Assembly (NCBI GenBank): GCA_963674705.1
Contig: OY771506.1
Span: 4,704,001 to 4,768,000, forward strand
Origin: Phycisphaeraceae bacterium
GTDB lineage: Bacteria; Planctomycetota; Phycisphaerae; Phycisphaerales; Phycisphaeraceae
DNA length: 64,000 nucleotides
Direction of reading: 5' to 3'
Shown here in pieces: positions 12,697-30,579 of this stretch; the stretch's first letter is position 1, and each line of letters starts with the position of its first letter. The translations under genes were made by a program, and so were the position numbers. The notes under the pieces were generated by a model. That model did no database searches, was not told where the DNA came from, and was given only the letters and a program-made list of their open reading frames with translations.

Positions 12697-14049
12697 ATGA
12701 AACCAAGCATACAAAACCACTGGATTACACGCCGTGAGGCGTTAAAGGTGGGTATCGCCGGCGCGGCTTCACTGGCATTGGGTGCCCATGAACATCTTAT
12801 CGCTGCGCCCGCAGCAACTGCATTATCATCTTCAAATGCGATGGCCAAGTCAGTGATCCAAATCTGGATGTGGGGTGGACCATCACACCTTGATACGTTC
12901 GATCCTAAGCCCGATGCAGGACGTGATTACACAGGCCCACTAGATAAACCTATCAAAACAAATGTAGATGGCATCCAGATCGGCCAACTTCTGCCGGAAT
13001 TAGCCAAGCAAGCGGACAAATACTCGATCATCCGCAGCATGACCCATGGGATCAACGCTCATGAGACCGCATCATACCTGATGCAGACAGGTCGGATGCC
13101 TGATCGGATCAGTTACCCGAGTGTGGGAGCAGTTGTATCGAAGTTTCGCGGCTATGACGCAGGATATAACGGGCCGATTGCACCATACGTTGTCCTGACT
13201 GAACCGCAGGGCAGATTCTCAGAAGCAGGCTGCCTGGGGCAGAAGTATAAGCCGTTTGCAACTGGTGGTGATCCGAATCGCAATCGGTTTGTCGTTGAAG
13301 GAATCATAGCAGAGGGTATCAGTGATGAGCGTCAATCTGCTCGCCGTCAGCTGATGCACGATCTTGACACCCTTGGCAAGGTGATGCAAGACGAGCCACA
13401 GTTTCAAAAGCATGATGAAACCGAGCAACAAGCCTACGACACAATGTTCGGCAAGGCGAGAGAGGTGTTCGACCTATCCAGTGTGGATAAGGCGCTGCGC
13501 GATCGCTACGGCCGCAATACGTTCGGTCAATCGTGTCTGATGGCTAGACGGTTGGTTGAGGTCGGTGTTCCTTACATCACCATCAATTACAAAGGCTGGG
13601 ACACACACAAACAACATTTCCAGTTGATGCAAAGAAAACTGCCGGAGATGGATGCGGCCATGGCTACGCTGCTGAGTGACCTGAGCGAGCGTGGTCTGCT
13701 CGATAGCACAATCGTCTGGTGGGGTGGAGAATTCGGCCGCACGCCGAAGGTGCTATGGGAGCCGCCGTGGAACGGTGGACGGGGCCACTTCGGCCAATGT
13801 TTTTCTGTGGTTGTCGCCGGTGGTGGATTTGTCGGCGGGCATGTAGTCGGCGCCTCCAATGCCAAAGGCGATGATGTTGCCGAACGCCCCGTGTATCCGA
13901 TCGACCTGATCGGCAGCATGTACGAACTACTTGGTATTGATACCACAGGCTCCTTAACGAATCCGCTCAATCTCGATCTGAACATACTTCCAGAAGTCAG
14001 TGGCAACGTGAAGTCAGCCGGTCGGCTGAAGGAGATCATGTCGATATGA
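12697..14049 (+). CDS. DUF1501 domain protein (Tat-like signal)
   Basis: TRREALK, GGPSHLDTFDPKP, RYGRNTFGQSCLMARRLVE, WDTH, GEFGRTP. Confidence 0.92.
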   Translation: MKPSIQNHWITRREALKVGIAGAASLALGAHEHLIAAPAATALSSSNAMAKSVIQIWMWGGPSHLDTFDPKPDAGRDYTGPLDKPIKTNVDGIQIGQLLPELAKQADKYSIIRSMTHGINAHETASYLMQTGRMPDRISYPSVGAVVSKFRGYDAGYNGPIAPYVVLTEPQGRFSEAGCLGQKYKPFATGGDPNRNRFVVEGIIAEGISDERQSARRQLMHDLDTLGKVMQDEPQFQKHDETEQQAYDTMFGKAREVFDLSSVDKALRDRYGRNTFGQSCLMARRLVEVGVPYITINYKGWDTHKQHFQLMQRKLPEMDAAMATLLSDLSERGLLDSTIVWWGGEFGRTPKVLWEPPWNGGRGHFGQCFSVVVAGGGFVGGHVVGASNAKGDDVAERPVYPIDLIGSMYELLGIDTTGSLTNPLNLDLNILPEVSGNVKSAGRLKEIMSI

Positions 14050-16412
14050 CCCGCGCCGCCCCACTGTTTATGTTGTTTTTCGTTTTGTTCACAGCGGCTC
14101 CGACCTTGGCCCAAGAGGGAAAGCGTGATCCTGGCATCGGGTATCTATATCCAGCCGGTGCCCAGCGAGGCACCACCGTTCGCGTGCTGGTTGGCGGGCA
14201 GTTCTTGCGGAGTTCGGAATCGGTATATGTCAGCGGAGAAGGTGTCAGCGGTAAAGTGGTGGAACATTATCCACCATTGCGCAATATCGATAAGGAGCAA
14301 CGTGCCGTATTACTCAGCCGTATGGCTGATTGTGCCCAAGTGAGATGGGATGAACTTGTCGAATTGGGTCTGGTCAAAGGAAAGCCGCCTTGGAACCTTA
14401 CCCGTAAGCCGTCTGTGAATTCCGAAGACGCCAAACCAGTAGAACTGCCCAGGCATTTTCTGTTGAACGACTGGGAACAAATGTCGCTAAGACAATTGGC
14501 ATCCATCCGCGACCGGCTAACTGATCGTAGCATGCAACAGCTTAACACTCAGATCGCTGAGACAGTGCTGGTCGAATTGACCATCGATGCCGACGCTGTC
14601 CCGGGCGATCGTGAATTGCGCCTTAGGGGAGGCATGGGCTTGACCAACCCAATGTTATTCCAGATTGGTCAATTGCCTGAGGTGCAAGAGGTCGAATCGA
14701 ATGATCCTCGTGAATGGGATCCACTGCCACCCGAACCCCCCGTTGATCTGCCAGTAGTAATCAACGGGCAGGTGCTTCCGGGTGATGTCGATCGCTTGCG
14801 TTTTCACGCCGAGGCGGGCCAATCCCTGGTGATCATAGTGCAGGCGCGTCACTTGGTTCCTTTCCTCGCGGATGCGGTCCCCGGTTGGTTCCAGCCGGTT
14901 GTCACGTTATATGATGTGAATGGCCAGGAGCTGGCTTTCGCAGACGACTACTTCTTCGATCCCGATCCTGTAATTCATTTTGACGTACCTGCAACCGGTG
15001 TATACACGCTTGAGATCTGTGATGCGATCTACCGCGGCCGAGAGGACTTCATCTACCGGATTAGTATCGGCGAGTTACCTTTCATTACTTCCATGTACCC
15101 GCTGGTTGGTAGTACCAATGAATCAACATCCACGACAATCAAAGGATGGAACCTGCCTTCCGATGTTTTAGCTTTACCTGGTCAGCCTGTAGGTGTTTAC
15201 ACAGTTTCATTAGACCACCCATTGGGTCTGAGCAATCCAATGATGTACATTGTCGATGATGCACCTGTTCAGCACGAGGATGAACCTGATAATCCGACAA
15301 ATGCAGTACAGAAGTGCGAATTACCACTACTTATTGAAGGACGCATTAATTCACCCGGCGATGTGGATATCTATAGATTTGAAGGACTAGCTGGCCAGCA
15401 TCTGGTAGCGGAAGTGATCGCACGCAGGCTTCATTCACCACTCGACTCGCTGTTACGTGTGACTGATTCTCAAGGTAAGACTATCGCCTGGAATGACGAC
15501 TGCACCGATAAACGAGGTTATTTGCACCGTGGTTATGGTGTATTGACTCACCAGGCCGACTCTCGTCTCGAGGTCGAGTTGCCTGAAAACGGTATTTACG
15601 ATGTATCTGTCACGGATGCAACGTGTCACGGCGGTCCGGCTTATGGTTACCAACTCCGAATCGGCCCTCCCGAGCCGGACTTCGAACTATACATCGGCCC
15701 ATCGTCGGTTAACGTGATCACCGGTCACTCCACACCGTTGACGGTGCATGTCCTGCGCCGCGATGGATTCGACGGTCCGATCGAATTGCAACTCGTGGAA
15801 CCACCAGCGGGTTTTACACTCGACGAGGCTACCGTTCCCTCCGGTGTCGATTGCATTCGCGTCACTCTGACAGCGCCAACAGAGCGTATCATCAAACCAT
15901 TCGAATTGAATATCCAGGGCCAAGCCGTAATCGAGGGTTCTACGATCACAAAAACAGCAATGACGGTCGACGACGTTATGCAGGCGTTCCTCTGGCGTCA
16001 TCTGGTTCCGACCAGGCAGATGCTCGTATCCAATAACGGACGGCGGCGATCACCTACGCCGCCAAGGCGCATTGGCGATAATCGAATACAAGTACCAGCC
16101 GGCGGTTCGGCAACTGTATCTTTCCGGGCTGAACTGCCTCGCAATCCCAATAACATTCATCTTGATCTAAATGAACCGCCGGACGGGCTTTCGATCGGTC
16201 CGGTTCGAATCAATAACGATCAAATCAGTTTTGATCTCTTCGCTACCAACGAGGTGAACGTTGGAATAACAGACAATCTGATTATCGACCTTTCGATGCA
16301 CTTAACCAGGAAGGAGAAAGACGGAACGGAGCGATCGATACAACAGCCGCTTGGCTCGCTTCCGGCTGTTCCTTTTGTGATTGTGGAGCGACCCACTCAT
16401 GAATCCGACTAA
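14046..16412 (+). CDS. Secreted PPC (pre-peptidase C-terminal) repeat protein
   Basis: YLYPAGAQRGTTV, EVESND, GDVDRLRF / GDVDIYRF, YQLRIGPPEPDFEL; usual partner of DUF1501/DUF1553. Confidence 0.82.
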   Translation: MTRAAPLFMLFFVLFTAAPTLAQEGKRDPGIGYLYPAGAQRGTTVRVLVGGQFLRSSESVYVSGEGVSGKVVEHYPPLRNIDKEQRAVLLSRMADCAQVRWDELVELGLVKGKPPWNLTRKPSVNSEDAKPVELPRHFLLNDWEQMSLRQLASIRDRLTDRSMQQLNTQIAETVLVELTIDADAVPGDRELRLRGGMGLTNPMLFQIGQLPEVQEVESNDPREWDPLPPEPPVDLPVVINGQVLPGDVDRLRFHAEAGQSLVIIVQARHLVPFLADAVPGWFQPVVTLYDVNGQELAFADDYFFDPDPVIHFDVPATGVYTLEICDAIYRGREDFIYRISIGELPFITSMYPLVGSTNESTSTTIKGWNLPSDVLALPGQPVGVYTVSLDHPLGLSNPMMYIVDDAPVQHEDEPDNPTNAVQKCELPLLIEGRINSPGDVDIYRFEGLAGQHLVAEVIARRLHSPLDSLLRVTDSQGKTIAWNDDCTDKRGYLHRGYGVLTHQADSRLEVELPENGIYDVSVTDATCHGGPAYGYQLRIGPPEPDFELYIGPSSVNVITGHSTPLTVHVLRRDGFDGPIELQLVEPPAGFTLDEATVPSGVDCIRVTLTAPTERIIKPFELNIQGQAVIEGSTITKTAMTVDDVMQAFLWRHLVPTRQMLVSNNGRRRSPTPPRRIGDNRIQVPAGGSATVSFRAELPRNPNNIHLDLNEPPDGLSIGPVRINNDQISFDLFATNEVNVGITDNLIIDLSMHLTRKEKDGTERSIQQPLGSLPAVPFVIVERPTHESD

Positions 16413-17616
16413 CATGATCGAACAGAATTCAACGAGCATGAAGTGTCGCCGAATTGATTGCACGGACCTGCCTGTGTGTGTAAGGATGTCGTTGTTCAAG
16501 GCTGATTCGGATGTCACAGAGATCCACTTGTCGGCCGCGCCAACCGCGCCGGGTGATATCGGAGAGCAACTCAGTTGGCTCAACGATGCGTACCACGCAG
16601 CCTTAGACGCGATCGATTGCGACACGCGATCGGCCGTGTTCCGCAGACTTTTTTGCAGCGATCCAGCCAACCAATATGACGAAGTAATCGCCGATCCACT
16701 GGGACAAACCGGCTATAAGGATCAAGCCTGCGCCGTCAGTATTGTTGGCCAATCACCCGCACCACCAGCCAAAGTCGCTCTATTAGCCTACCACGTGCAT
16801 GATCCAGCAGAACATCTTGTCAAGTCTCACGACGGATCAGCGCTGACTTTGCGACGCGGCCGTCTTAAACACCACTGGACCACGGGGATGTCCGCCCCCA
16901 CTGAAGTCGACTCACGCCAACAATCTCGTAGTATTTTGACCGATTACGAGCGTTATCTTCAAGCCAGTCAAATGTCCCTGGCAGACAATACCATACGTAC
17001 CTGGCTTTTCCTCCGAGACATCGATGTTAATTACCAGGGTATGGTACAGGCACGCAGAAAGCTTTTTAATGAACAAGGTCTCAATGCAGACACTCACTAT
17101 ATCGCCAGCACAGGCATCGGCGGTCTCAACCCTGACCACCATGCTCTGGTGACCATGGACGCATGGTCAGTTGCAGGCTTAGACCCAAGCCAGGTCCGCT
17201 ATCTCAAGGCCGGTGACCATCTCAGTGCGACAGATGTGTACGGTGTCACGTTTGAGCGTGGAACGGTAGTCTCATACCGTGATCGAGAACACATAATCAT
17301 TTCAGGCACCGCAAGCATTGACCAACACGGCCAAATCATGCATCCCGGCAACATATACCGCCAACTCAACCAAACGATGAACAATATCATGGCCCTGCTC
17401 AATGAAGCCGGTGCAAGCACTTGCGATGTGGCATATTGGATCGTCTATCTGAGAGATGTCTCTGACTTGACAACGCTTAATGGTCAAATACATAAATGGC
17501 TTGGTAATGCACCGATGGTCCTTGTGCAGGCGCCTGTCTGCCGCCCGGGCTGGCTCATAGAAATAGAGTGTCTGGCTATCTCCCCTGCTCATCTGCCTGA
17601 TCTGCCAAACTACTGA
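16399..17616 (+). CDS. Rid/YjgF-fold protein (endoribonuclease L-PSP / chorismatase-like, multi-domain)
   Basis: RTWLFLRDID, ASTGIGG, YGVTFERG, ISGTASID, VCRPGWLIEIE. Confidence 0.8.
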   Translation: MNPTNMIEQNSTSMKCRRIDCTDLPVCVRMSLFKADSDVTEIHLSAAPTAPGDIGEQLSWLNDAYHAALDAIDCDTRSAVFRRLFCSDPANQYDEVIADPLGQTGYKDQACAVSIVGQSPAPPAKVALLAYHVHDPAEHLVKSHDGSALTLRRGRLKHHWTTGMSAPTEVDSRQQSRSILTDYERYLQASQMSLADNTIRTWLFLRDIDVNYQGMVQARRKLFNEQGLNADTHYIASTGIGGLNPDHHALVTMDAWSVAGLDPSQVRYLKAGDHLSATDVYGVTFERGTVVSYRDREHIIISGTASIDQHGQIMHPGNIYRQLNQTMNNIMALLNEAGASTCDVAYWIVYLRDVSDLTTLNGQIHKWLGNAPMVLVQAPVCRPGWLIEIECLAISPAHLPDLPNY

Positions 17617-17933
17617 TTGTGAAAATAGCCATAGCCCTGCAAGATATTCATTAGCCAACGAGTTTCACAAATGCATGCGACTGTCAGCCGATAGCCTTGG
17701 TTGGATACCGCGAATACTCTTCTTGAAGAATGACATAACGACGACAACCTCGCTACTGCTGTAAAGTGCGATCCGGCTGTTGCACCAGGTCACTATCGCG
17801 AGATTAACTCACTCGGGTTACTACACTTCCACGCCATCAGTATCTCTTACTGATGGCATGGCCTGTTCGTAGTGATTCACGTGATACCGTATCAAGTTCT
17901 TGTGTGATTCATTCGGAATTAAGGTGCACATCC

Positions 17934-17961
17934 TTGACAATTGAATGACTTGATTTATACT
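17934..17961 (+). promoter_or_regulatory. Sigma70-type promoter
   Basis: TTGACA-N16-TATACT, conserved in copy 2. Confidence 0.75.
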
Positions 17962-18106
17962 GGCCGGTGGTGAAAGTGCATATGCGGCTGCCACAGGCAG
18001 CCATAATCAAGTCAATCGGAGGAAGTCCCCAGCATATAATTCCCAGCCACTGAACATTCAGGTTATTAACGGTTACTTTGTAGCTGCTGGGCAAGAGATA
18101 CTAGAG

Positions 18107-18140
18107 AAAGCCCTCGCAACATTGATTGTGAGGGCTTTTT
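18107..18140 (+). terminator. Intrinsic terminator within the 5' leader (attenuator)
   Basis: AAAGCCCTCGCAA-loop-TTGTGAGGGCTTTTT between promoter and CDS. Confidence 0.8.
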
Positions 18141-18441
18141 GTATTGTGACTCGAACTAAAACCATTTGGAGGGCGCATATCGAGACAGGTTGAAAATAAC
18201 ACAGCGAGTCGTTTCTTTTATGACTTCTGACACCGCGTGTTAGAAGGTTGTGTGTACTTACACACATCTGTGGCTGTGAAATGAGAAGAATTGAATTATG
18301 TGGGCGAGTAGTCGGTGCGATGAGAAGTGCCAGTCCTTCGTGAAGCTTACCGATTCCCGCAATGCCCGGATTCTGCCTGCGACTTGGAACAAACAGTGTC
18401 TGCGAAGTTGGACTACAATTCACTTATATAGGAGGAAGAAA

Positions 18442-19161
18442 ATGTTGAAGACAACACCCTGCATACTGACGCTTGCACTGGCTGCCGGCGCAGTCCACGC
18501 GGACCTGATCAATGAGTTCAGCCCCAATCCTGATGGCGCTGATCCGCTCACCCAGACAATCGAACTGCTCGGTACGCCCGGCGCTTCGTTCGATCTGTGG
18601 TTCCTCGAGATCGAATCGGACCTCCAGGCGTCAATGGGGACAATTGACCGCGCCGAACCCATGGTAGGCACGTATGATGCCAATGGTATTGCTACCATAG
18701 AGATTGCCGATCTGGAAAACCCCAGCTCGACCTATGTGCTTACCTCCGGCTTTGATATCAACAACCTGGGCATCGATAACGACGCCGACGATGACGGTAT
18801 TTGGGATGACATCGCCCTGCTCGGCACCGTGATGGATGCGGTCGGCCATTTTGATGCACCCGAAGACTTCGTCGACTATGCAGGCCAGCTCGGTGGTGTG
18901 GCCATGGCTTTCAGTGCCAGCCTCGGCGACGGCGAAGCGGAGCTACTCTTCCGTGACCGCGTCACCCTTGACTGGTACGCCTCCGATGTGGGTATCCCCG
19001 GCCTGGCTGACGCCAACGGCAACGATGTCGACCCAAACCTCTTTGACCTCGATCCATTCACGGCAACCTTCGGCAGCGCTAACCCGACCGTTATCCCCGA
19101 ACCGGCCATGATAAGTCTGTTTGGCTTCGCCGGCCTTGCAACACTGCTGCGCCGCCGTTGA
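18442..19161 (+). CDS. Secreted PEP-CTERM protein (acidic, lamin-tail-like domain)
   Basis: GGAGG RBS 18431; signal peptide; INEFSPNPDGAD...IELLGTPG; IPEPAMISLFGFAGLATLLRRR. Confidence 0.85.
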   Translation: MLKTTPCILTLALAAGAVHADLINEFSPNPDGADPLTQTIELLGTPGASFDLWFLEIESDLQASMGTIDRAEPMVGTYDANGIATIEIADLENPSSTYVLTSGFDINNLGIDNDADDDGIWDDIALLGTVMDAVGHFDAPEDFVDYAGQLGGVAMAFSASLGDGEAELLFRDRVTLDWYASDVGIPGLADANGNDVDPNLFDLDPFTATFGSANPTVIPEPAMISLFGFAGLATLLRRR

Positions 19162-19199
19162 TATAGACCCGGTCAAAAATGAAACATGCAGATAATATG

Positions 19200-19230
19200 C
19201 GAAGACCCGTCACCAAAGCGGGTCTTCGTT
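19200..19230 (+). terminator. Probable terminator hairpin
   Basis: CGAAGACCCG/CGGGTCTTCG perfect 10-bp stem followed by TTACTTT. Confidence 0.65.
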
Positions 19231-19585
19231 ACTTTGCATTGATAAGCATAATGGTGTGAACCGGAGTTAAACGAAAGATTGAGGATGACGAATCTATATT
19301 ATATCTTCACACTGTAATCTGACGTCACTTTTTGTGTTTGTTTTCTGTTAACAACAGATTGTGTGTGATCCCCACAGGTCAATCATTATCTGGCGATAGT
19401 GACCACGTTACCGCCACATCCTCAACCCAGTCGGCTTTACTATTTATGCATGCCATATAAATCCCATCCCGTATTCATGGTGATCCTGGAGTAATTGGGA
19501 AGCAATAATTTTGGAATACGTATTAATATCATTGCGTTAAACCCGCACGTAAAGCTAAGCGAATCAAGATCCAGCACAATTCACG

Positions 19586-19870
19586 CGGAATTAACAGGCA
19601 TATCCTTGACAAATGCATGACTTGATTTATACTGGCCGAAGGTGGAAGTGCGTATACGGCTAGCCTAGGCAGCCGGACCCAAATCAATCGGAGGCGTTAC
19701 ACAGCATATAATTCCCAGCCACTGAACATTCAGGTTTCTAACGGTTACTTTGTAGCTGCTGGGCAAGAGATACTAGAGAAAGCCCTCGCAACATTGGTTG
19801 TGAGGGTTTTTTGCATTGGGACTCGGGGCTCAAACTTTATGGAGGTTGTATATCGAAACAGATTGAGAAT
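19586..19870 (+). repeat. Leader element copy 2 (promoter + structured RNA + terminator)
   Basis: TTGACA 19606, TATACT 19628, CCCAGC...GCTGGG 19714-19763, terminator 19779-19812. Confidence 0.9.
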
Positions 19871-19974
19871 GGAGAGTTGGATTAGTTCAATCCCGACGTG
19901 AAATCGGGTTCTTACGAAAATGTATCAATCAGACGTCTAACAAACTTTTATTCAGCAAGAAGGGAAGGTTCAGA

Positions 19975-20832
19975 ATGAAGGCTTATCAGAAACTGATCGG
20001 AATGATGACGGTTGCAAGTATCGCGACCCTGACCGCACAGTCCGCAAACGCGGTGGCGATTAATGAGTTTCGTGTAGATCACGCAGGCGCCGATACCGAT
20101 GAATTCTTTGAACTGGCGGGCACCCCCGGCGAATCACTCGATGGTTTGACATACATCGTGATCGGCGACGTCCCGGGCGGCGGCGACTTCACCACCGGCG
20201 CGATTGAAGTCGCCATCTCCTTAGACGGATTATCAATCCCCGCCGATGGTTTCTTCCTCGCGGTGGAATCTATTTTCGCTGGACCGGCCGGCGTCAACGC
20301 GGACCTGGTGATCGACCTGAACTTCGAGAATTCCGACACGGTCAGCCACCTGCTTGTCAGCGGATTCACCGGCCAGGATGGGGACTTAATCGACTCCGAT
20401 CAGGATGGTGTGCTTGATGCGGTTCTACCCTGGACCAGCATTATCGATGGCTTGTCTTTAGAGGAACTGGTGAACACTACAGAGATCAACTACGGGCCGC
20501 AACTTGGTATCCCCACATTATCAGCACAACCATCAACCGGTGAAAATTACATGCACGCTTATCGTGAAGTCGACATCACAGGCGCCTGGATAGGCGGTTC
20601 TGATTATCTCTTCCTTGATACTGAGACGCCGGGCTATTCCAATGTCGCTGCCGCGATCCCGGGCGATATCAATGAAGACGGCTTTGTCGGCCTTGACGAT
20701 CTTGACATTGTTTTGAACCATTGGAACGAAGGCACACCTCCCTCCGGCGGTACTCCGTCAATCCCCGAGCCGGCGTCGTTGGCTTTGCTTGGCGTAAGTC
20801 TCACAGCCTGCCTGCGCCGCCGTGGTGCGTAA
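19975..20832 (+). CDS. Secreted PEP-CTERM protein (lamin-tail-like domain + dockerin-like motif)
   Basis: INEFRVDHAGADTDEFFELAGTPG; GDINEDGFVGLDDLDIVLNHWN; IPEPASLALLG...RRR. Confidence 0.88.
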   Translation: MKAYQKLIGMMTVASIATLTAQSANAVAINEFRVDHAGADTDEFFELAGTPGESLDGLTYIVIGDVPGGGDFTTGAIEVAISLDGLSIPADGFFLAVESIFAGPAGVNADLVIDLNFENSDTVSHLLVSGFTGQDGDLIDSDQDGVLDAVLPWTSIIDGLSLEELVNTTEINYGPQLGIPTLSAQPSTGENYMHAYREVDITGAWIGGSDYLFLDTETPGYSNVAAAIPGDINEDGFVGLDDLDIVLNHWNEGTPPSGGTPSIPEPASLALLGVSLTACLRRRGA

Positions 20833-20960
20833 ACGGGAGACATCCCTCCCGGTGCTAGGTGGCCGGGCCTCCTCGGGACGGGGGCCCGCGCCGCCTGAGC
20901 GCAAGTGTTGGCGTACGTGAGTAACTATGGGAAGGTTAAAAACTTTAAGGACGAATAATT

Positions 20961-21857
20961 ATGACGACAAGATTACCGGCTAAGCGCATCGGTGCATTCA
21001 CCCTGATCGAATTGCTGGTCGTGATATCCATCATTGCTTTACTCGTTGGCATCCTGCTGCCTGCATTAGGGGCGGCGCGTAGATCTGCTCAGAAACTTAG
21101 CTGCCTTTCGAACATGCGGCAGATCGGATTGGCCGCAGCCGCACGCGCAACTGATGATAAGTATGGGATTCAGATGCCCACGTTTGACGGAACTGATGAC
21201 GGCTTGGCGCATCTCTATCCGAATTACCTGCAAGCAGTCGAACTGGGTGTATGCCCCAGCACTGATAACATTTGCCGCTCCGACAACATGAGGCCGGCTG
21301 GCCTTCAGATCCCCGGCTTGCCCCCGGGGTCTCAGTATGACCGCGAGGTGCCTTCGGATTGGACACGCGCCGCATTAAGCGCATCTTACAACAAGGGTGG
21401 ACAAAGCTATGAAGTCTTTGCGTGGATGAGCGGCCCCGTCATCTTCCCCGATGGTAAAAAAGTCGATGGAAGAATGCTTGGAACAATCAATGACCAACGC
21501 GCAAGCGAACCTCGCCTCAATGGTCCGCACTGGAACAGTGTCACAAGCAGCGTGCTAAAGTCAACTCACAACGTTGACAATACCAGCAAGGTCATGCTGG
21601 TGCTTGATGCGGATATTGGCCATGGTGACGATGACCGAAACAACATCCCGGATGTCACGAACAATCACGGGGATGAAGGCATCAATATGAACTTTCTCGA
21701 TGGACACGCCAGTTGGGTACCTGCCGGGGAAGAGTTACTCAGGACTTACCTGGATGGGTATTCAACCGCGGCCTTGGACAATTCCACCTTCATGGAATTC
21801 ATCCCCAACCTGAGAATATCCTCGGAAAATGGCTTCACGAGATACAGCTACGATTAA
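20961..21857 (+). CDS. Prepilin-type DUF1559-like protein
   Basis: [41 protein letters not shown]. Confidence 0.9.
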
Positions 21858-22043
21858 GCCGTTTCATTCATTATGGTACGGCTAGAGGTGAACCTGCTCC
21901 GTGCAATTGACATGGGTAGATACAGACTAAGTTGAATGTCTAATTTGTGTGAATTAAGAACGTATGTACTAGTGTGCTTATCAATATCAAGAGGAGTTGA
22001 AATGAATCGGGCCGGCTGCCCGTGCGGGATCTTGAAGTGTGAA

Positions 22044-22625
22044 TTAACGATTCAACTGCCACAAGCGTGAATTTGATGTGCTGACTGCCTGACAACCCGC
22101 GCGCAGGATCTGGCCCGCAGTGTCACCGCTGCGGATCAATCCCCCCGCGATGTAAGGAATCGAAATCTGCTTCAGATCATCCGCAATGAGTGTGGTCGCG
22201 ATGCCGGGCAGCATCTCAATCGCATCGGGTTTGGAGTGTTCGATGATAGACAGGCCACGCCTGACCGCCCGGCCATCTTGAAGGAATAAGCGTAGAACCG
22301 TGTAGAGATTGAGTTTTCGGCTGAGTCGAATCAAATGATGTTTTGTAGTAATAATCCCGCATACCCGGTCAAAGCCCGCAACGAATCGGAGCCCGGCTTC
22401 GTCGTTATTCAGCCCGCCAATGAGGTCTATATGGAGCATAACCGGGATATTACGCGTCAGTTTCTTGTTCAACATATTCAGTGCGTGGGGGATATCGGAG
22501 ACTTCGCCGCCACTAAGGAACAAGACATCTGCGTATTCCAGCAACTCCGGGTCGGGTATGGACCAATCGGTGACGTAAGGGATGATTGGTTTACCCAGGA
22601 GTGATCGGATGCCCTTGGCATTCAT
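22044..22625 (-). CDS. glpP: Glycerol-3-phosphate-responsive antiterminator GlpP
   Basis: HIDLIGGLNNDEAG, GIITTK, RLFLQD, PDAIEMLPG, IAGGLI, AVSTS..LW; ATG at 22625 gives 193 aa. Confidence 0.9.
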   Translation of the reverse strand: MNAKGIRSLLGKPIIPYVTDWSIPDPELLEYADVLFLSGGEVSDIPHALNMLNKKLTRNIPVMLHIDLIGGLNNDEAGLRFVAGFDRVCGIITTKHHLIRLSRKLNLYTVLRLFLQDGRAVRRGLSIIEHSKPDAIEMLPGIATTLIADDLKQISIPYIAGGLIRSGDTAGQILRAGCQAVSTSNSRLWQLNR

Positions 22626-22656
22626 GGCATGAACCTTGTAAATAAAAGTAGTTGAT

Positions 22657-25113
22657 ATGCAAGTAAGTATGATAGAAGGTGAACAGGTAAATTCCAAACA
22701 GTCTACGGACGCCCGGGTCGATCCGGACCGTTTGCGGCAGGTCCGCCACCTTGCGCTGGACATGGATGGCACGCTCTATCTTGGCGGCACCTTGTTCGGA
22801 TTCACGCTTGATTTTTTGAGTTCGCTTCGTGAGATGGGGATCGGCTATACGTTCTTCACCAACAACTCCTCAAAATCCACACAGGAATATATCGAACGTC
22901 TCGGTAAGATGGGGATCGAGACGACGCCCGATATGTTCTACAGCTCGACACACGCGACGATCGACTATATCCGCAAGTCATACCCGATGGTCAATAAGAT
23001 TTTTGCCCTGGGAACCACAAGCTTCCAGGAAGAACTTATTCAGAATGGTTTTGAGATCAGCGCAGCACAGCCGGACATGGTTGTTGTCGGATACGACACG
23101 GAACTGACATACGCCAAGTTGTGCCGTGCTGCCTATTGGATCAAACAAGGCAAACCATACATTGCCACACACCCGGACCTGATCTGCCCAACCGATCAGG
23201 CTATTGTATTGCCGGATTGCGGGGCGATCTGCAAAATGCTGACCGCCGCAACCGACCGCAATCCTGATGCGATCTTGGGCAAACCCAACACACTCATGCT
23301 TAAGGGTTTGTTGGACCGTCACGACCTGGAGCCGTTTCAAGTCGCGATGCTGGGTGATCGTCTCTACACCGATATCGCGATGGCGAACAACGCCGGCGCG
23401 CTCAGTGTGCTCGTACTGACGGGCGAAACGAAATCGGAAGATATCACCGGCGCTACTCAGCAGCCTGATATCACGGTCGACAATGCTTGGAAGTTCCTTG
23501 AGTTATTGAGGGGTAGCCTTGCGGGTGTTAATGTTGCTCAGCCATCTGCCGTGAGTATCAAACCCGTTACCAAACCAAGCGGTGATGAACCGACTACCTC
23601 AGATCAGGATGATGTAGACGTCTTGATTATCGGTGGAGGGATTGTCGGCGCCGGCATCGCGCGCGATGCGGCGATGCGTGGGTTGCGCGTGGTGCTGGTT
23701 GAACAAAACGACTTTGCCTCCGGCACAAGCAGCCGATCGAGCCGGTTGCTGCACGGCGGATTGCGCTACCTTGCACAAGGCCGCATAGGCCTGGTGCGTG
23801 AAGCGAGCCTCGAAAAGCAGGTCGTGCAGAAGATCGCTCCACATTTGGCGGAATCGCTACCGTTTATCTTCCCGACCTACAAAGGGACACAGTGGAAACG
23901 CTGGAAGCTGGGCATCGGTGTGAAGATCTATGACCTTCTCTGCAACGGACGAAACTTCGGCAAGTCGCAAACACTCGGTGTAAACCGTGTACGGGCGGAT
24001 CTGCAAGGCATCAAAGCCGATGATTTGACCGGTGCGGTAAGGTATTTTGATGGGCTGACGAATGATGCACGCCTGGTGATTGATACATTGCGTTCCGCGG
24101 CATCCCATGGGGCCCAGCTTCATAATTACACACGATTTGAAAACGCATCCAACAAGGGCGGCGTCTGGCAGTGTGAGTTACATGACCGCCGAGCCAATCG
24201 TCATTACAGCTTACATGCCAAGACCGTCGTCAACGCGTCGGGGCCGTGGGCCGATCGTCTGGCGCATAGCCGAACATCGCTGCGCCTGACCAAGGGGGTG
24301 CACCTGGTTATCGACCGCGATCGATTACCAATCCCCGATGCGGTTGTCATGACGGAAGGTGATCGTATCCTCTTCGCGATCCCCTGGGGCAAACGTGTGA
24401 TCCTCGGCACCACGGATACGGATTATGATGGCCCGCTGGATTCGCCAACGTGCGATGTAGAAGACGTGCAGTATGTACTTGCTATCACAAACAAGACTTT
24501 CCCGGAGGCATCGCTCCAAAGTGAACATGTCATCGCTGATTGGGCCGGCATACGCCCGCTGATCGCCAATGGTGACGAGGCCGGAACCCCGTCAGATACC
24601 TCACGCTCCCACCAGATACGGATGACCGAGCCCGGATGGTTCGATGTCGCGGGTGGCAAACTGACCACGTATCGCTTGATGGCAGAGCAAACCGTGGACA
24701 TGGTTGTGGATCAATTGGGCTGCGAAGCGCTGGATTGTCAGACCGCGAAGCATCGGTTATTAAATCCCGGGGAGGAGCGTGGCAGCGGTATCCTTCCCCC
24801 TGCGGTTTCGCGTGACCAGGTTGTACACTATTGTCAGAATGAGTGGGCAATACACTTGGATGATGTTATGCTCAGACGCTCCAGCTGGACGTATTATCAC
24901 AGCAACGCGATGGATATCGCCCAGCGGGTCGCGGCCTGGATGGCGGATATCTATCAATGGGATCGATCAACCACTGCTGCAGAGTTACAAAGATACTTTG
25001 CCAGCTCAGGCGACAATAACCGTGATTCGATTCAAGATGTTACCGTCACCTCGACACCGAATGTATTTCTCAGGTCGGTTCTCAAAGGCCAACCGCAACA
25101 GATCGAGATGTAG
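22657..25113 (+). CDS. glpD: Fusion: HAD-IIA (NagD-like) phosphatase + FAD-dependent glycerol-3-phosphate dehydrogenase
   Basis: DMDGTLY, TNNS, GKPN, GDRLYTDI, then a linker, then DVLIIGGGIVGAGIARDAAMRGL, GTSSRSSRLLHGGLRYL, GGKLTTYR. Confidence 0.88.
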   Translation: MQVSMIEGEQVNSKQSTDARVDPDRLRQVRHLALDMDGTLYLGGTLFGFTLDFLSSLREMGIGYTFFTNNSSKSTQEYIERLGKMGIETTPDMFYSSTHATIDYIRKSYPMVNKIFALGTTSFQEELIQNGFEISAAQPDMVVVGYDTELTYAKLCRAAYWIKQGKPYIATHPDLICPTDQAIVLPDCGAICKMLTAATDRNPDAILGKPNTLMLKGLLDRHDLEPFQVAMLGDRLYTDIAMANNAGALSVLVLTGETKSEDITGATQQPDITVDNAWKFLELLRGSLAGVNVAQPSAVSIKPVTKPSGDEPTTSDQDDVDVLIIGGGIVGAGIARDAAMRGLRVVLVEQNDFASGTSSRSSRLLHGGLRYLAQGRIGLVREASLEKQVVQKIAPHLAESLPFIFPTYKGTQWKRWKLGIGVKIYDLLCNGRNFGKSQTLGVNRVRADLQGIKADDLTGAVRYFDGLTNDARLVIDTLRSAASHGAQLHNYTRFENASNKGGVWQCELHDRRANRHYSLHAKTVVNASGPWADRLAHSRTSLRLTKGVHLVIDRDRLPIPDAVVMTEGDRILFAIPWGKRVILGTTDTDYDGPLDSPTCDVEDVQYVLAITNKTFPEASLQSEHVIADWAGIRPLIANGDEAGTPSDTSRSHQIRMTEPGWFDVAGGKLTTYRLMAEQTVDMVVDQLGCEALDCQTAKHRLLNPGEERGSGILPPAVSRDQVVHYCQNEWAIHLDDVMLRRSSWTYYHSNAMDIAQRVAAWMADIYQWDRSTTAAELQRYFASSGDNNRDSIQDVTVTSTPNVFLRSVLKGQPQQIEM

Positions 25114-25149
25114 TTGGAATCAGTTTTCATCTATCAGGACAATATATTT

Positions 25150-26754
25150 ATGAAGAATATAGCCCGTACGCCGTATACCTTACCAAGTGTCTTGGCCTTT
25201 CTTTGCTTGTGCTTGGTGAGTTTGATGTATGTTCAAGTTGTCTATGCATCAGAAGACAATCCCTACGTCGATGCGGTGCTGGCGGATAAGCCGGTTGGCT
25301 ACTGGCGTTTTGAAGAGGCATCCAATGCGTCTGTAGCTGTCAATCTTGCAGATAAGTCTGATGCGACCCAAGGCTCGTACAACATGGTGACGCTTGGAAT
25401 TCCGAGCGCAACAAAGGCGCTCGGTAACGCGGCAGCGTTTCATGGAGCCGATGCGGACAGCTACATTGATCTCGGCTCGCCGGAATCTCTTATGATCCGT
25501 GGTGATCTGACGATCGAATGGTGGCAGTATGTAACCAACAGCAATGTCGAGGATCAGGCTATCATCTGCTGGGCTAAGCCGGGTGATAGTGCATCGGACA
25601 ATGTGCTTTACGAAGTTGTTTTGCGCTATGATGAGAAGCAAAAGGAGCAAAAGTACCCGCGCCCCCAGATCGTGCTCGGTCACGAGTACGGCCAAGGCAC
25701 AAACGTCCGGATGCCTTCACAGGCAACGGTCCACTTCAATCGTTGGTATCACATCGCCGTCGTGCGAGATGCCGATGCACGCACCGTCCAGTATTACATC
25801 AACGGCTTCCCCTCGGGCGAGCCGATCAGCTATGCGACGAATAACAACAATCCCACGGGTGGCGAATCCGCCGGCGTCACGATTGGCCGCCTGGGACAGT
25901 TTGATAGTCGTTACTTCCAAGGGTATCTGGATGAGGTCGCTGTTTACAACCATACATTAACCGCGGATCGCATCCTGAAACATTACCGCACAGCACTTAA
26001 AGGCGCCGACATGAAAGAACGTTCAATAGTCGTTGCACACCGAGGCAACAACCGATTCGCCCCTGAAAACACGATCGTTTCGTACAAACAAGCAATCGAA
26101 GCCAAAGCACCGATGGTCGAGATGGACCTCCAGTACAGCAAGGACGGCGTTATTATTCTCATGCATGATAAAACGCTGGATCGGACTACCGATGGCACAG
26201 GTGAAGTCAAAGCTAAAACACTTGACGAATTGAAAACGCTCGATGCGGGTACCTGGAAAGGCACACAATACACAGGCGAGCCGGTCCCAACATTTGCCGA
26301 GGTCGCAAAGGTCTGTAAGGGGCAGACCATCATCATGCTTGATTTAAAGACTCTCGTGAAAGGCGATGATATCGCAAAAGCCTTGTCTGAAGCAGACTTC
26401 CCCGAGGACCAGGTTGTTGTCGCACCTTGGCAGATCGAGCATGCCACATCCATCAAGCCCTACCTGCCGGACGCAAACATGATCTTGTTGCACAGCCAGC
26501 TGCCAGAAGAATACACGGGCGATGATGTTTTCTTCGACAACATGAAACAACTCGGATTCAGTGGATTCTCCCTGAATTGGACGCACCTGACTGAATCTTT
26601 TGTACGAGCGGCACGACAGAATGGTATGAAAGTCTATACCTGGACGATTAATGATCCTGTGGATATCAGTGGCGCCGTGTTGATGAAGGTCGACGGGATC
26701 ATCACGGATGACCCCAAAGCCACAGCGGTCTATATTAACGACGTGATCCGCTGA
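25150..26754 (+). CDS. Secreted LamG-like + glycerophosphodiester phosphodiesterase (GDPD)
   Basis: PVGYWRFEE, WYHIAVV, GYLDEVAVYN; AHRG...PENT, EMD, HDKTLDRTT, WTIND, GIITD; ATG at 25150. Confidence 0.9.
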   Translation: MKNIARTPYTLPSVLAFLCLCLVSLMYVQVVYASEDNPYVDAVLADKPVGYWRFEEASNASVAVNLADKSDATQGSYNMVTLGIPSATKALGNAAAFHGADADSYIDLGSPESLMIRGDLTIEWWQYVTNSNVEDQAIICWAKPGDSASDNVLYEVVLRYDEKQKEQKYPRPQIVLGHEYGQGTNVRMPSQATVHFNRWYHIAVVRDADARTVQYYINGFPSGEPISYATNNNNPTGGESAGVTIGRLGQFDSRYFQGYLDEVAVYNHTLTADRILKHYRTALKGADMKERSIVVAHRGNNRFAPENTIVSYKQAIEAKAPMVEMDLQYSKDGVIILMHDKTLDRTTDGTGEVKAKTLDELKTLDAGTWKGTQYTGEPVPTFAEVAKVCKGQTIIMLDLKTLVKGDDIAKALSEADFPEDQVVVAPWQIEHATSIKPYLPDANMILLHSQLPEEYTGDDVFFDNMKQLGFSGFSLNWTHLTESFVRAARQNGMKVYTWTINDPVDISGAVLMKVDGIITDDPKATAVYINDVIR

Positions 26755-26833
26755 TGTATGCACTTGCGCCCGAGCGAAGCTGACTTGATGCCCCGCTCTT
26801 TATAACCAATGATGGACTGGACGGTACAAACGA

Positions 26834-28183
26834 ATGGCCAAAGGCACCTTCAAATTCCTGTCCCCCGCCCCGCATGCCCCCAGACTTCCTGACGACCAGG
26901 TCAAACGGCTTTACCCCCGTTATCGCTGGCAAATCATGGAGTCGACCTTCCTCGGGTATGCCATGTTCTACCTGGTCCGCAACAACCTCTCTCCGGTCGC
27001 CAAGGAGATTGAGGGGGCGCTGCACTACGACCATTCGATGATCGGCAGCATCCTGGCGGTCACCGCGATCTCCTACGGGGTCGGCAAGTTCATCATGGGT
27101 TCGATTTCCGACCGCAGCGATCCTCGCAAGTTCATGGCGCTTGGCCTGTTATTGACGGCCATATGCAACTTCATGTTCGGCGGCGTTGCGAACTATTACC
27201 TGCACATGGCGCTGTGGTCGATGAACGGATTCTTCCAGGGGATGGGCTGGCCCCCGTGTGGCCGATCCATGGGACACTGGTTCAGCGCCCGCGAACGAGG
27301 TGTTTTCTTCAGCACCTGGAATACCTCGCACAACCTAGGCGGCGGTATCGCCGGCATCCTCGCTGCGTATGCCGCGGGGCACTTCGGTTGGCAGGCCGCG
27401 TTCTACTTCCCCGGGGCTATCACGTTGGTTGGCGCACTCTATTTGTTCTGGCGTCTCCGTGACACACCGCAATCCGTGGGCCTCCCGCCAATCGAAGAAT
27501 ATAAAAATGATTACACCGAAGATGAACTCGAGCACGGCCTACACGAAGAAGAACTCGGTACCAAAGAGCTGCTTCTCGATGTCGTCCTGACCAACAAGTA
27601 CGTCTGGATGCTGGCGATCGCCAACTTCTTTGCATACATCGTCCGTTACAGCATGCTCGACTGGGGGCCGATGTACCTGCGCGAGATCAAGGATGCAACA
27701 CTGCACGGCGGAGGTTTTGCCGTCCTTGTGATTGAGTTCGGCGGTATCCCGTCAACGATTTTCTTCGGTTGGGTCTCCGACAAGCTCAGCGGCCGACGCG
27801 GGATGGTCGGGACGTTGTGCATGCTGCCGATCGCGGTCGCTTTCGCCGTGATTGCTCTGACACCGCCCGGTTATCTCTGGCTTGACATGTGTATGCTCGC
27901 GGTGATCGGTTGCTTTATCTATCCGGTCATCAATCTGATCACAATCGCAGCACTCGACCTGACTTCCAAGAAAGCAATCGGATGTGCCGCGGGTTTCATC
28001 GGTCTCTTCGGCTATATCGGCCGGACCGTACAAGCCAAGGGCTTCGGTTGGATGGTGGATTACTTCTCTGAGATTTATTCCTTGCATACCGCCTGGCTGA
28101 TCGTCATGTACACGATCCTTGCCAGCGCCATTGTCACGATTGTGTTGCTTGCCACCATGTGGCGGCTTAAACCAAAGGCATAG
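26834..28183 (+). CDS. glpT: GlpT-like glycerol-3-phosphate MFS antiporter
   Basis: FLGYAMFYLVRNN, QGMGWPPC, WNTSHNLGGG, RDTPQSVGLPPIEEY, AAGFIGLFGY. Confidence 0.92.
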   Translation: MAKGTFKFLSPAPHAPRLPDDQVKRLYPRYRWQIMESTFLGYAMFYLVRNNLSPVAKEIEGALHYDHSMIGSILAVTAISYGVGKFIMGSISDRSDPRKFMALGLLLTAICNFMFGGVANYYLHMALWSMNGFFQGMGWPPCGRSMGHWFSARERGVFFSTWNTSHNLGGGIAGILAAYAAGHFGWQAAFYFPGAITLVGALYLFWRLRDTPQSVGLPPIEEYKNDYTEDELEHGLHEEELGTKELLLDVVLTNKYVWMLAIANFFAYIVRYSMLDWGPMYLREIKDATLHGGGFAVLVIEFGGIPSTIFFGWVSDKLSGRRGMVGTLCMLPIAVAFAVIALTPPGYLWLDMCMLAVIGCFIYPVINLITIAALDLTSKKAIGCAAGFIGLFGYIGRTVQAKGFGWMVDYFSEIYSLHTAWLIVMYTILASAIVTIVLLATMWRLKPKA

Positions 28184-28205
28184 GTTTTATGTGAGTGGGG
28201 AAAGG

Positions 28206-30191
28206 ATGTTGACAATGTCTTGCAGACAACTGGGCCTGTTATTCTTAGTTTTATTGTTCAGCTGCTGCAGGGCTGAGTACGCACACGGTCAAATCCGAAT
28301 AGTCACCTATAATACCGCCAACGGAACCGGCATCGAAGGGAATACCGCCATCCCACGCACCGGGATGGAGGTCGTGCTCCAGGCTATCGGCGACGAGTCT
28401 ACCGGTGGGATCGCAAAGCCAATCGATATCCTTGCACTGCAGGAGCAGGACGATGTCGCAACCACGACACAGATCTTTGTGAATATGCTTAACGCGATCT
28501 ATGGCCCGGGCACCTATGCACGAGGCTATGTACTCAATGACGCAACCACACAAATCCACACAGGCATCGTCTATAACACGACCACGGTAACGCTGCTCGA
28601 AGAGCATGCCTTCGGCACCGCAAGCGGTTCCACCTCTGCCAGGCAACCGATGCGTTACAAATTCCGCCCCGTCGGTTACACCAGCTCAGCGGACTTTTAC
28701 GTTTATAACAGCCACTACAAAGCAAGCACGGAAGCAGCCAGCCTGGTCCGCCGAGCATACGAAGCCGAGATCATCCGCGCCGATGCCGACGCGCTGGGCC
28801 AAAGCAAACACATCATCTACGTGGGCGATTACAACATCCAATCCAGCAGTGAGGATAGCTATCAGATATTGCTGAGCCCCGGCAACGGGCAAGCGTTCGA
28901 CCCGATCGACTCGCCCGGCAATTGGCACAATAACTTCGGATTCGCGCCGATCCACACGCAGAGCCCCCATGATGGCAGCGACAACTTAGCCGAAGGCGGC
29001 ATGGACGATCGCCTGGACTTCCAATTGGTAACCAGTGAATTCCTGGACGATGAAGGACTCAGCTACATCAATGGCTCGTATCACGCGTTCGGCAATAATG
29101 GCACGACTTATGACCTCCCAGTCAATTCAGTACTCAATACCTACCCGTTAACACAGGCAAAGTTGGATGATCTGGCGCATGTCAGCGATCACTTACCCGT
29201 CGTGGCTGATTATCAACTCCCCGCCCGGATGCAGGTCACGGTAGACCCTGTCCCGCAGCGGGTGATGATAAACTCGATTGTAAGCGTGTCGGCAACCGTA
29301 ACAAACACAGCCCCGGTCGTCGCTTCCAACGGTGCCGACGAACTGGATTACACGATTACTACACTGGGGCTGCTTAGCGGTGGCGGGTCAGGCAGTGTTG
29401 ATGCACTTGTTGCTGGAGATGTCTACGAATTAACGCTGAACACGTCTGTTGTGGGAACTAGGAACGGGCAAGTCAACGCATCAAGCAACAGCCAGGCTGT
29501 GGCGAATGGCTCCTTCTTCAAAGGTGTCAGCAGCACCATCCTCGATCACGCCAGTGCATCATTTGCCTCCGGCTTGGATCAGAATACGCTGACGATCGAC
29601 TTCGGCACACTCACAACCGGCGGGGCCATTACCAGCGATTTCGATCTATTTAACCTCGAACTGTCCTCGCTCTTCACTTCTGCCCTCGATCTCGACATGA
29701 TCGTAGGCCAGGGGGATACCGGCATACTCCTCAGCAACCTTGCGACGTTCAACAACCTGGCAGCCGGTGATTCACACGGATTTATAGCCAGCTTCAACAC
29801 CGGCACGGCCGGTTCATACTCAGCAACCTATACCCTGCACCTGTCCGATGAAGATGTCCCTGGCGAAGCCGGCCAGACACTCACACTACAACTGCTGGGT
29901 CAAGTCATCGAAGACCTGGTCGGCGACCTGGATAACGATGGGTTCGTCGGTCTGTCGGACCTGGACATCATCCTGACGAACTGGAACAAAACCGTTCCAC
30001 CAGGTGATCCGTCAGCAGATCCGACCGGTGACGGGTTTGTCGGTCTGGATGACCTGGATATCGTGCTCAATAACTGGAACAGCGGCACCCCGCCTCATGC
30101 ATCAGACAATATCCCTGAACCAGCAAGCATTATCTTGCTCGGGCCAGGCCTCACGTTGTATCTGCGTCGCTGCCAAATAGTCGAATCTTGA
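28206..30191 (+). CDS. Secreted endonuclease/exonuclease/phosphatase (EEP) with Ig-like domains, dockerin-like motifs and PEP-CTERM
   Basis: IVTYN, LALQE, SHYKA, GDYN, RLDFQ, SDHLPV; two DGFVGL-DLD motifs; IPEPASIILLG. Confidence 0.88.
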   Translation: MLTMSCRQLGLLFLVLLFSCCRAEYAHGQIRIVTYNTANGTGIEGNTAIPRTGMEVVLQAIGDESTGGIAKPIDILALQEQDDVATTTQIFVNMLNAIYGPGTYARGYVLNDATTQIHTGIVYNTTTVTLLEEHAFGTASGSTSARQPMRYKFRPVGYTSSADFYVYNSHYKASTEAASLVRRAYEAEIIRADADALGQSKHIIYVGDYNIQSSSEDSYQILLSPGNGQAFDPIDSPGNWHNNFGFAPIHTQSPHDGSDNLAEGGMDDRLDFQLVTSEFLDDEGLSYINGSYHAFGNNGTTYDLPVNSVLNTYPLTQAKLDDLAHVSDHLPVVADYQLPARMQVTVDPVPQRVMINSIVSVSATVTNTAPVVASNGADELDYTITTLGLLSGGGSGSVDALVAGDVYELTLNTSVVGTRNGQVNASSNSQAVANGSFFKGVSSTILDHASASFASGLDQNTLTIDFGTLTTGGAITSDFDLFNLELSSLFTSALDLDMIVGQGDTGILLSNLATFNNLAAGDSHGFIASFNTGTAGSYSATYTLHLSDEDVPGEAGQTLTLQLLGQVIEDLVGDLDNDGFVGLSDLDIILTNWNKTVPPGDPSADPTGDGFVGLDDLDIVLNNWNSGTPPHASDNIPEPASIILLGPGLTLYLRRCQIVES

Positions 30192-30579
30192 GTCGGTTCC
30201 CCGAAAGAGTGTTAATCTGGGCAATTTGCGAATTGGCGATCATATACCTAATTGGCAACCAGTCCGGTATCACAAGGTTCTAACAATGAATAGTATGCAT
30301 TTCCGGAGCCCTTGCTATACTAGACTTGGTCACCCCTGCTGGGTGTGACCGACACATCGGAGTGCGGGGAAAGCTTGTGGTGGGTTTGCATTAACCACAG
30401 CCGAGGTTCCCGCAATCAGGCTGACAATCCGAACCTATCCGAGGAGGCTACGCCGCTGTATCGCGAGCGACCAATCATCGCGAAATCGCTTGGGATGCAT
30501 CGGTACGTCAATATGAACGGTATGTTTGTTTGTAGTGGGTGTGGTACTCGTTAGTACTAGTATTCTGGAGTTCCGGAAA

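Follow-up and report, generated by a model that had tools for sequence, protein, structure and literature searches.

In Bacillus subtilis, the antiterminator GlpP together with glycerol-3-phosphate (G3P) activates glpD, glpFK and glpTQ by disrupting terminators in their leaders, according to three published accounts (PMC9604022, PMC10573289, PMC10877136). The 5′ untranslated region of glpD carries GGTC-CT-GAGA-TGAG-GAGA-GACC, followed by a terminator (PMC9604022, supplement Table S4). A Thermotoga regulon study left GlpP unanalysed (PMC3750489), a term search of PMC11034616 returned no antitermination or autoregulation terms, and PMC13010140 contributes nothing further. Our literature search, whose sources did not extend to subscription papers or the original GlpP work, found nothing on GlpP in planctomycetes or on GlpP control of PEP-CTERM or DUF1559 genes. 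Nor did the search find a GAGA consensus described; Fig. S1 of PMC9604022 marks the GlpP site, and the short stem treated below may be described there. Here we analyse two duplicated noncoding leaders in a stretch of 64,000 nucleotides (nt) from a Phycisphaeraceae bacterium (contig OY771506.1, positions 4,704,001 to 4,768,000; the whole stretch is hereafter the window). Each leader stands before a PEP-CTERM gene, with a glpP gene nearby, and a sequence-only reading of the locus had proposed them as GlpP targets, pointing to a GAGA-N-GAGA motif at the 5′ arm of the B. subtilis glpD terminator, which Table S4 bears out. On the sequence evidence, we consider it highly probable that both leaders are GlpP antitermination targets. 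The support comes from the layout of the leaders and its agreement in plan with that of B. subtilis glpD, from their co-occurrence with glpP, from stem covariation and from a recurrent gene context; we infer that G3P is the ligand, that GlpP binds directly and that polymerase reads through.

The leader repeat occupies positions 17888-18153 (copy 1) and 19560-19825 (copy 2), an ungapped offset of 1672 nt. The copies are 85% identical in DNA, whereas the proteins encoded behind them share just 26% identity, as the sequence-only reading had observed in general terms. The TTGACA-N16-TATACT that it had noted in each copy is a predicted sigma70-type promoter on the plus strand (17934..17961 and 19606..19633), and these two sites rank highest among the seven promoter-like sites found when 14000-28000 was scanned. 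Downstream, GAGATACTAGAGA begins at 18095 and 19767 and continues into a hairpin with a U-tract, forming intrinsic terminators at 18107..18142 and 19779..19814 (−21.5 and −22.4 kcal/mol, 6 T of 8). A simple terminator scan reported 12 sites and listed neither of them; folding found both, and the strong terminator previously placed before each PEP-CTERM frame is thus present. The fold z-scores of the leaders are −3.4 and −2.5. In sequencing-run contigs of two studies the same arrangement can be followed piece by piece, the core common to both copies being reduced to a single short contig; the arrangement is therefore not an assembly artefact.

The working unit is about 55 nt long and consists of a 4-bp stem, GGGC/GCCC, closing a GAGA-N5-GAGA loop, with the 3′ strand of the stem doubling as the terminator 5′ arm. 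Both copies in the window read GGGC-AA-GAGA-TACTA-GAGA-AA-GCCC. The predicted GlpP site and antiterminator of copy 1 spans 18089..18113 on the plus strand (GGGC 18089-92, GAGA 18095-98, GAGA 18104-07, GCCC 18110-13), and that of copy 2 spans 19761..19785. In these leaders and in the B. subtilis glpD leader alike, complementary 4-mers surround two GAGA repeats, and the 3′ 4-mer lies within the terminator 5′ arm. Because this 4-mer belongs to the terminator, the antiterminator stem and the terminator are mutually exclusive. Folding agrees: the stem is present in the minimum-energy structure of both transcripts ending after GCCC and is gone once the terminator has been transcribed.

Which parts of the leader are conserved can be judged within the genus. 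G000 denotes the window's own genome (5.54 Mb), and G003, G004, G005, G006 and G007 are other genomes of the same genus. In the comparison of G000 with G004, the promoter is 87-90% identical, the 5′ leader 68-84% and the 3′ core 95-96%; the background is 76% in adjoining spacer and 80% at third codon positions. The core is therefore conserved beyond background and the 5′ hairpins are not, so that the earlier claim of conserved hairpins stands for the 3′ stem-loop and terminator and falls for the upstream structures. What is conserved is the short stem-loop together with its terminator. In seven genus copies, a TTG..TAnnnT site precedes the GAGA by 129-149 nt. A second promoter proposed at TATAAT (18035) was ruled out, being absent from G004. 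The variable 5′ leader of copy 1 (17968..18070), not conserved in G003, G006 and G007, contains the strand CCCAGC (18043-18048), which in G000 and G004 is able to pair with GCUGGG at 18086-18091 in competition with the antiterminator stem; this pairing is not evident in G003, G006 and G007. It is followed by a small genus-specific hairpin, GGTTAC/GTAGCT (18071..18085). Separately, the promoter spacer TGACTTGA forms an inverted repeat with TCAAGTCA about 50 nt downstream (17940-18017; 19612-19689), in copy 1 of G000 and G004 and partially in copy 2, and may be an operator; a sequence resembling this spacer occurs at G000:C1:4343035-4343059 (E 0.09-0.3).

The element recurs beside glpP far beyond this genus. 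We scanned glpP loci from genomes, metagenomes and plasmid records covering several phyla, and a loose match was present in 119/172. After removal of 4 duplicates, the motif with a strict terminator occurred in 107/168 loci (1.78 Mb), including 47 of the 65 from planctomycetes. The whole G000 genome holds 313 occurrences of the motif, nine loose matches and two strict ones, which are the two leader copies. A stem of at least 4 bp is present in 110 of 120 unique strict elements; permuting the flanks 500 times gave a mean of 72.8 (maximum 83), and sliding the flank by 10 nt gave 17. The signal stems from elements outside planctomycetes, where stem forms are varied: there the count is 65/75 against a mean of 39.5 (maximum 51), and 0/1000 permutations reach the observed score. 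In planctomycetes the stem is present in 45/45 elements and nearly invariant, with 4 double-sided cells (8/500 shuffles; 11/1000 permutations). Variants GAGT, GAGC and GTGC occur in canonical planctomycete leaders (L052, L061, L065, L139, L147), and the GAGA repeats thus tolerate change.

The core also tracks glpP from genome to genome. By BLAST it is found only in genus genomes that have glpP, about 2-3 kb from that gene. Among 151 class-level genomes, glpP passes its cut-off in two, and covariance model matches of at least 40 bits are confined to the same two; 12 others have matches of 29-38 bits. The best two of these 12 were inspected, both in glpP-negative genomes. The match in G089 (37.8 bits) contains the motif and is nevertheless a gene-end terminator, because it lies directly behind a PEP-CTERM stop codon and faces a convergent gene, and that in G161 (35.5 bits) is missing the GAGA pair. 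Among 41 relatives, matches of at least 40 bits occur in 6/7 glpP genomes and 0/34 others; the remaining glpP genome is G005, whose glpP is cut at a contig end. The covariance model search, of the kind that the sequence-only reading had suggested, thus returned strong matches in glpP genomes only. Within G000, BLAST and nhmmer found the two leader copies and no others, and a covariance model scored them at 59 bits against 21 bits for the next match; this search used model R1, in which the terminator is one column out of register in most rows, and a rebuilt model, R2, was used elsewhere. No Rfam family covers the leaders, either at gathering score or at an E-value of 10 (the best hits are the terminator parts of the Thr and His leaders, 22 bits against cut-offs of 55 and 49), and none covers the element in eight other loci. 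The outcomes that had been named beforehand as contrary to GlpP control, namely a known riboswitch, a miniature inverted-repeat transposable element (MITE) or unlinked copies genome-wide, did not appear: Rfam gave no family, the genome has two copies only, and linkage to glpP holds at the level of both locus and genome.

Several observations weigh against GlpP control or reduce the force of these counts. The predicted stem probability is 0.87 in copy 1 and only 0.33 in copy 2, because CCCAGC competes. Among planctomycete glpP loci, 18/65 are without a strict match; nine of these were inspected, seven having variant or longer-spaced motifs and two having none in the stretch inspected. Covariation is weak within planctomycetes, since the stem is almost invariant there, and kin are not independent in the stem and target counts. 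The training set of the model included the genus elements that it recovered among the 41 relatives; outside that set lie three unlinked copies in G076 and the unlinked copies from the 20-genome search described below. Finally, the base rate used as a control for the targets comes from G000 and not from the genomes with unlinked copies.

The genes behind the element differ between phyla. Among 51 downstream frames scanned outside planctomycetes, 15 are GlpD-like, seven HAD, seven solute-binding, five glpP, three major facilitator superfamily (MFS) and two aquaporin-type, with one each of glycerophosphodiester phosphodiesterase (GDPD), FGGY kinase, ABC ATPase and sigma54 activator; eight are without a family at E 1e-20. 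The five glpP frames behind a leader (L039, L071, L073, L074, L079) imply positive autoregulation, if the leaders act as predicted, with a sign opposite to the feedback proposed below for the window's genus. The sigma54 activator gene stands behind a GlpP-type leader in a clostridial locus (L096:6438). In Planctomycetota outside the genus, the usual layout has glpP divergent from leader-HAD-glpD-(GDPD)-glpT, and the gene following 37 glpP-adjacent elements is HAD in 31, GDPD in three, Fe-ADH_2 in one and DUF1559 in two.

Further copies mostly point to other genes. A model search of 20 glpP genomes gave 33 matches in 17 of them, 14 being glpP-adjacent copies already counted; the other 19, with the three unlinked copies in G076, make 22 further copies. 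HAD is next in three, GDPD, Fe-ADH_2 or glpT in four, and an unassigned secreted protein in one, while a prepilin-type or PEP-CTERM gene follows 14 of the 22 (first gene in 13, second in one; six genomes), that is, 14/19 of those not preceding HAD. In the control, 25/344 strong terminators in G000 lead to prepilin-type or PEP-CTERM genes; even under a 30% base rate, 14/19 has a probability of about 1e-4 if the copies are independent, which they are not fully. From these target counts, surface-protein and pilin-like genes would be regular members of the predicted planctomycete GlpP regulon, and the earlier proposal of a GlpP switch on such genes is thereby supported and appears to generalise. 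One locus, L273 (G208:C111), has a leader followed by DUF1559, GDPD-LamG and LamG PEP-CTERM genes in a single unit, which links DUF1559 directly to phosphodiester hydrolysis. At another, L220 (G076:C122), a secreted-protein frame comes after the leader and seems to run by frameshift into the following gene; the latter shares 58% identity with the second gene downstream of a G198 leader.

In the window, leader 1 precedes a PEP-CTERM gene, and leader 2 precedes a PEP-CTERM gene and a prepilin-type gene, followed by glpP in reverse and then, 2.8 kb beyond leader 2, by the glp genes. PEP-CTERM protein 1 (18442..19161, plus strand, 239 aa) is by alignment a distant homologue of protein 2 (PEP2; 19975..20832, plus, 285 aa); a PEP motif terminates both, and the Pfam PEP-CTERM model passes for the second only. 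The prepilin-type gene (20961..21857, plus, 298 aa) has the N-methylation motif of PF07963. The reversed gene (22044..22625, minus, 193 aa) matches PF04309, the G3P-responsive antiterminator, at E 5e-43 and ends 2.2 kb after copy 2, as had been estimated. Beyond it lie a HAD-IIA phosphatase fused to a GlpD-like FAD dehydrogenase, without a leader of its own (22657..25113, plus), a LamG plus GDPD protein, GlpQ-like (25114..26754, plus), a GlpT-like MFS transporter whose best family is glpT, under its curated cut-off (26834..28183, plus), and an EEP-family phosphatase/nuclease-like PEP-CTERM protein with a weak match at E 8e-4, the probable last gene of the unit (28119..30191, plus). The HAD and GlpD-like parts are fused in G000 and G004 and are separate abutting genes in G003, G005 and G007; the start codon of glpP in G000 and G004 overlaps a Met-Pro-stop mini-frame (22622-22630, minus). 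Elsewhere in the genome there is a glpK without a leader, and one query found no glpF.

The arrangement leader-PEP2-prepilin-(reversed glpP)-HAD recurs in 5/5 genus genomes with enough contig (G000, G003, G004, G006, G007), with two surface-protein genes and the reversed glpP standing between the leader and HAD, a distance of 2.7-2.8 kb. The second leader copy, before another PEP-CTERM gene, is in tandem in G000 and G004 and divergent in G003 and G007. The earlier statement that no leader precedes glpD is correct at this locus and in the genus genomes examined, where none stands directly before HAD-glpD; other Planctomycetota do have one before HAD-glpD, and the missing leader is peculiar to the window's genus. 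The gap between the glpP and HAD starts is 31-33 nt in the genus (31 in G000, 32 in G004). HAD has 33 residues ahead of its DxD-bearing catalytic motif in the genus and 11-24 elsewhere, and the extension houses a conserved antisense promoter-like site: a minus-strand TTG-N3-N17-TAnnnT has its end precisely 12 nt into the HAD frame in 7/7 sequences long enough, although the encoded residues differ, and sites of this type occur in G000 at 6e-5 per base. This is likely the glpP promoter (in the window TTGGAA-N17-TATCAT, 22669..22697, minus, within the first 14 codons of HAD).

We think it likely that each copy attenuates transcription under the control of GlpP. In the absence of the signal, RNA polymerase would halt at the folded terminator about 175 nt past the predicted promoter; G3P-loaded GlpP would bind the GAGA-N5-GAGA loop and keep the GGGC/GCCC stem closed, allowing transcription into the PEP-CTERM gene. 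Copy 1 would likely gate one surface protein. Copy 2 would command a unit of PEP-CTERM gene, prepilin-type gene, antisense through glpP, HAD-glpD, GDPD, glpT and EEP, so that leader 2 probably serves glpD via read-through. Induction of this operon would therefore produce antisense RNA against glpP, a negative feedback damping the response. Our best reading, by a narrow margin, is that copy 2 heads a noncontiguous operon which, once induced, probably silences the gene for its own antiterminator. In the simplest account of its origin, a secondary GlpP unit ended up upstream, the original leader between glpP and HAD disappeared, and leader 2 now drives the operon through glpP. If the read-through is real, this is a noncontiguous operon repressing its own antiterminator, of which we found no case in the literature searched.

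The chief competitor concerns only the operon extension: the leaders may be GlpP switches for the PEP-CTERM and prepilin genes alone, with HAD-glpD-GDPD-glpT having escaped GlpP control under a promoter of its own inside glpP. Strong GC-rich hairpins without U-tracts behind PEP2 and behind the prepilin gene speak for this and against read-through. So does the scope of the scans, which covered promoters of the sigma70 type and terminator-like hairpins; planctomycetes use many extracytoplasmic function (ECF) sigma factors. Because of this scope we hold the operon extension at only slightly better than even. Within that scope, none of the five genomes has a plus-strand TTG..TAnnnT site in the 1 kb around the HAD start, and only one of them has a terminator-like hairpin in the interval from leader 2 to HAD, inside the G003 prepilin gene, so that no plus-strand terminator is conserved. 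Moreover, HAD-glpD-glpT is predicted to be leader-controlled in the other planctomycetes examined, and leader 2 always faces HAD, while the other copy can flip. Escape of the glp genes thus has somewhat less than an even chance.

Doubts about the signal and about the element itself carry less weight. GlpP might run the switch in response to glycerol-1-phosphate or another polyol phosphate: several planctomycete clusters have an added Fe-ADH_2 gene, the targets start with a HAD phosphatase, and the window GlpP aligns only distantly with solved structures of the family (E 5e-24 and 2e-14). The cluster nevertheless encodes GlpD-, GlpQ- and GlpT-like proteins, the classical G3P set, and the RxF, PD-x-x-E-x-LPG and AGGL motifs common with Bacillaceae GlpPs are intact, which makes a signal other than G3P unlikely. 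It is more improbable still that the element is a metabolite riboswitch, a small RNA or the target of another protein, near glpP by chance. The leaders of the genus do exceed those of other planctomycetes by about 85 nt (129-149 against 46-76 nt) and contain additional hairpins, but the added 5′ segment shows no conservation from species to species, Rfam offers no match, and what is conserved, the GlpP motif shared across phyla, follows glpP. Possible likenesses to T-box, c-di-GMP, cobalamin, FMN and ZTP riboswitches were dropped, since Rfam supports none of them. That the copies are more alike than their genes could point to a local duplication of recent date, to gene conversion or to a MITE-like repeat, in each case without function; this is refuted, as nearly as we can judge, by the conservation profile and the cross-phylum motif. 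The core stands at 95-96% against a 76-80% background and is kept in four other species in two orientations, the genome has two copies only, and no terminal inverted repeat of at least 25 nt occurs at the element.

The remaining observations concern the surface proteins and the rest of the window. The PEP2 model has a lamin-tail-like immunoglobulin (Ig) fold (predicted local distance difference test, pLDDT, 94 when alignment-based; 37 for single-sequence folding), and aligns to DUF4876 (Z 9.4, root mean square deviation (rmsd) 3.9, 172 aligned residues) and to the lamin B1 Ig domain (Z 7.4, rmsd 3.1, 101 aligned). The fold indicates no function, Foldseek was without a match at E 0.001, and an Atlas search gave unnamed clusters and an LTD lead only. 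In three glpP-negative genus genomes there are only distant glpT-like matches (27-31%), and PEP2 matches, among those listed, span only its C-terminal tail. Downstream, 30526-38176 holds four tandem PEP-CTERM genes, repeat-rich and propeller-like, three with a common C-terminal domain (repeat family D1) and one apparently split (32598-34624); the first has no Pfam or NCBIfam match. At 57877-59152, 35-nt inverted repeats 1206 nt apart probably mark an insertion sequence.

Prepilin-type/DUF1559 and PEP-CTERM genes, whose role is unknown, number in the dozens to hundreds in planctomycete genomes; by pattern, this genome has 80 and 331, respectively, and Rhodopirellula baltica is credited with 74 DUF1559 genes (PMC2754498). 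A recognisable RNA switch would tie named prepilin and PEP-CTERM paralogues to one metabolite, and their function therefore becomes testable. Joining the two lines of argument, we tentatively suggest, at rather less than even chance, that the genus switch heads a self-limiting noncontiguous operon built by rearrangement and that GlpP across Planctomycetota commands dedicated pairs of PEP-CTERM and prepilin/DUF1559 genes. If so, the expanded orphan families would be substrate-specific surface modules capturing glycerophosphodiesters. The element itself supplies what Rfam does not have, a model of the GlpP site spanning several phyla.

Compared with the B. subtilis GlpP/G3P system at glpD, glpFK and glpTQ, the locus shares a PF04309 regulator, a promoter followed by GAGA-N-GAGA between complementary 4-mers overlapping an intrinsic terminator, and linked GlpD-, GlpQ- and GlpT-like genes. 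It differs in phylum, in having PEP-CTERM and prepilin-type genes as first targets, in the regulator gene reversed inside the cluster, and in glpK lying elsewhere without a leader and glpF not being found by the one query; the leader is about 175 nt long in the window, with a spacer of 5, against about 20 nt before the motif in B. subtilis, with a spacer of 4. The BglG/SacY/LicT and HutP proteins and their RNA motif are unrelated to the GlpP system. The ribonucleic antiterminator (RAT) elements of the former, and HutP, which PMC10877136 lists, are alike in that the 5′ arm of the terminator overlaps an RNA element made stable or accessible by a protein; the window has instead a 4-bp stem and a large purine loop with two GAGA repeats. 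With the noncontiguous operons or excludons exemplified by Staphylococcus aureus menE-menC-MW1733-ytkD-MW1731 (PMC7154746), it shares an opposite-strand gene amid co-oriented, functionally linked genes. Here glpP is such an opposite-strand gene, with its own predicted promoter (7/7 sequences) between co-oriented genes. Unlike in the S. aureus case, the gene in between would encode the antiterminator of the operon itself and so provide feedback, with co-transcription predicted from the layout. The canonical planctomycete glp locus, with glpP divergent from leader-HAD-glpD-GDPD-glpT, has the same element and genes, and the window's genus departs from it in the distance of the leader from HAD. 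What is new here is thus the phylum, the target classes and the probable self-silencing layout of the operon.

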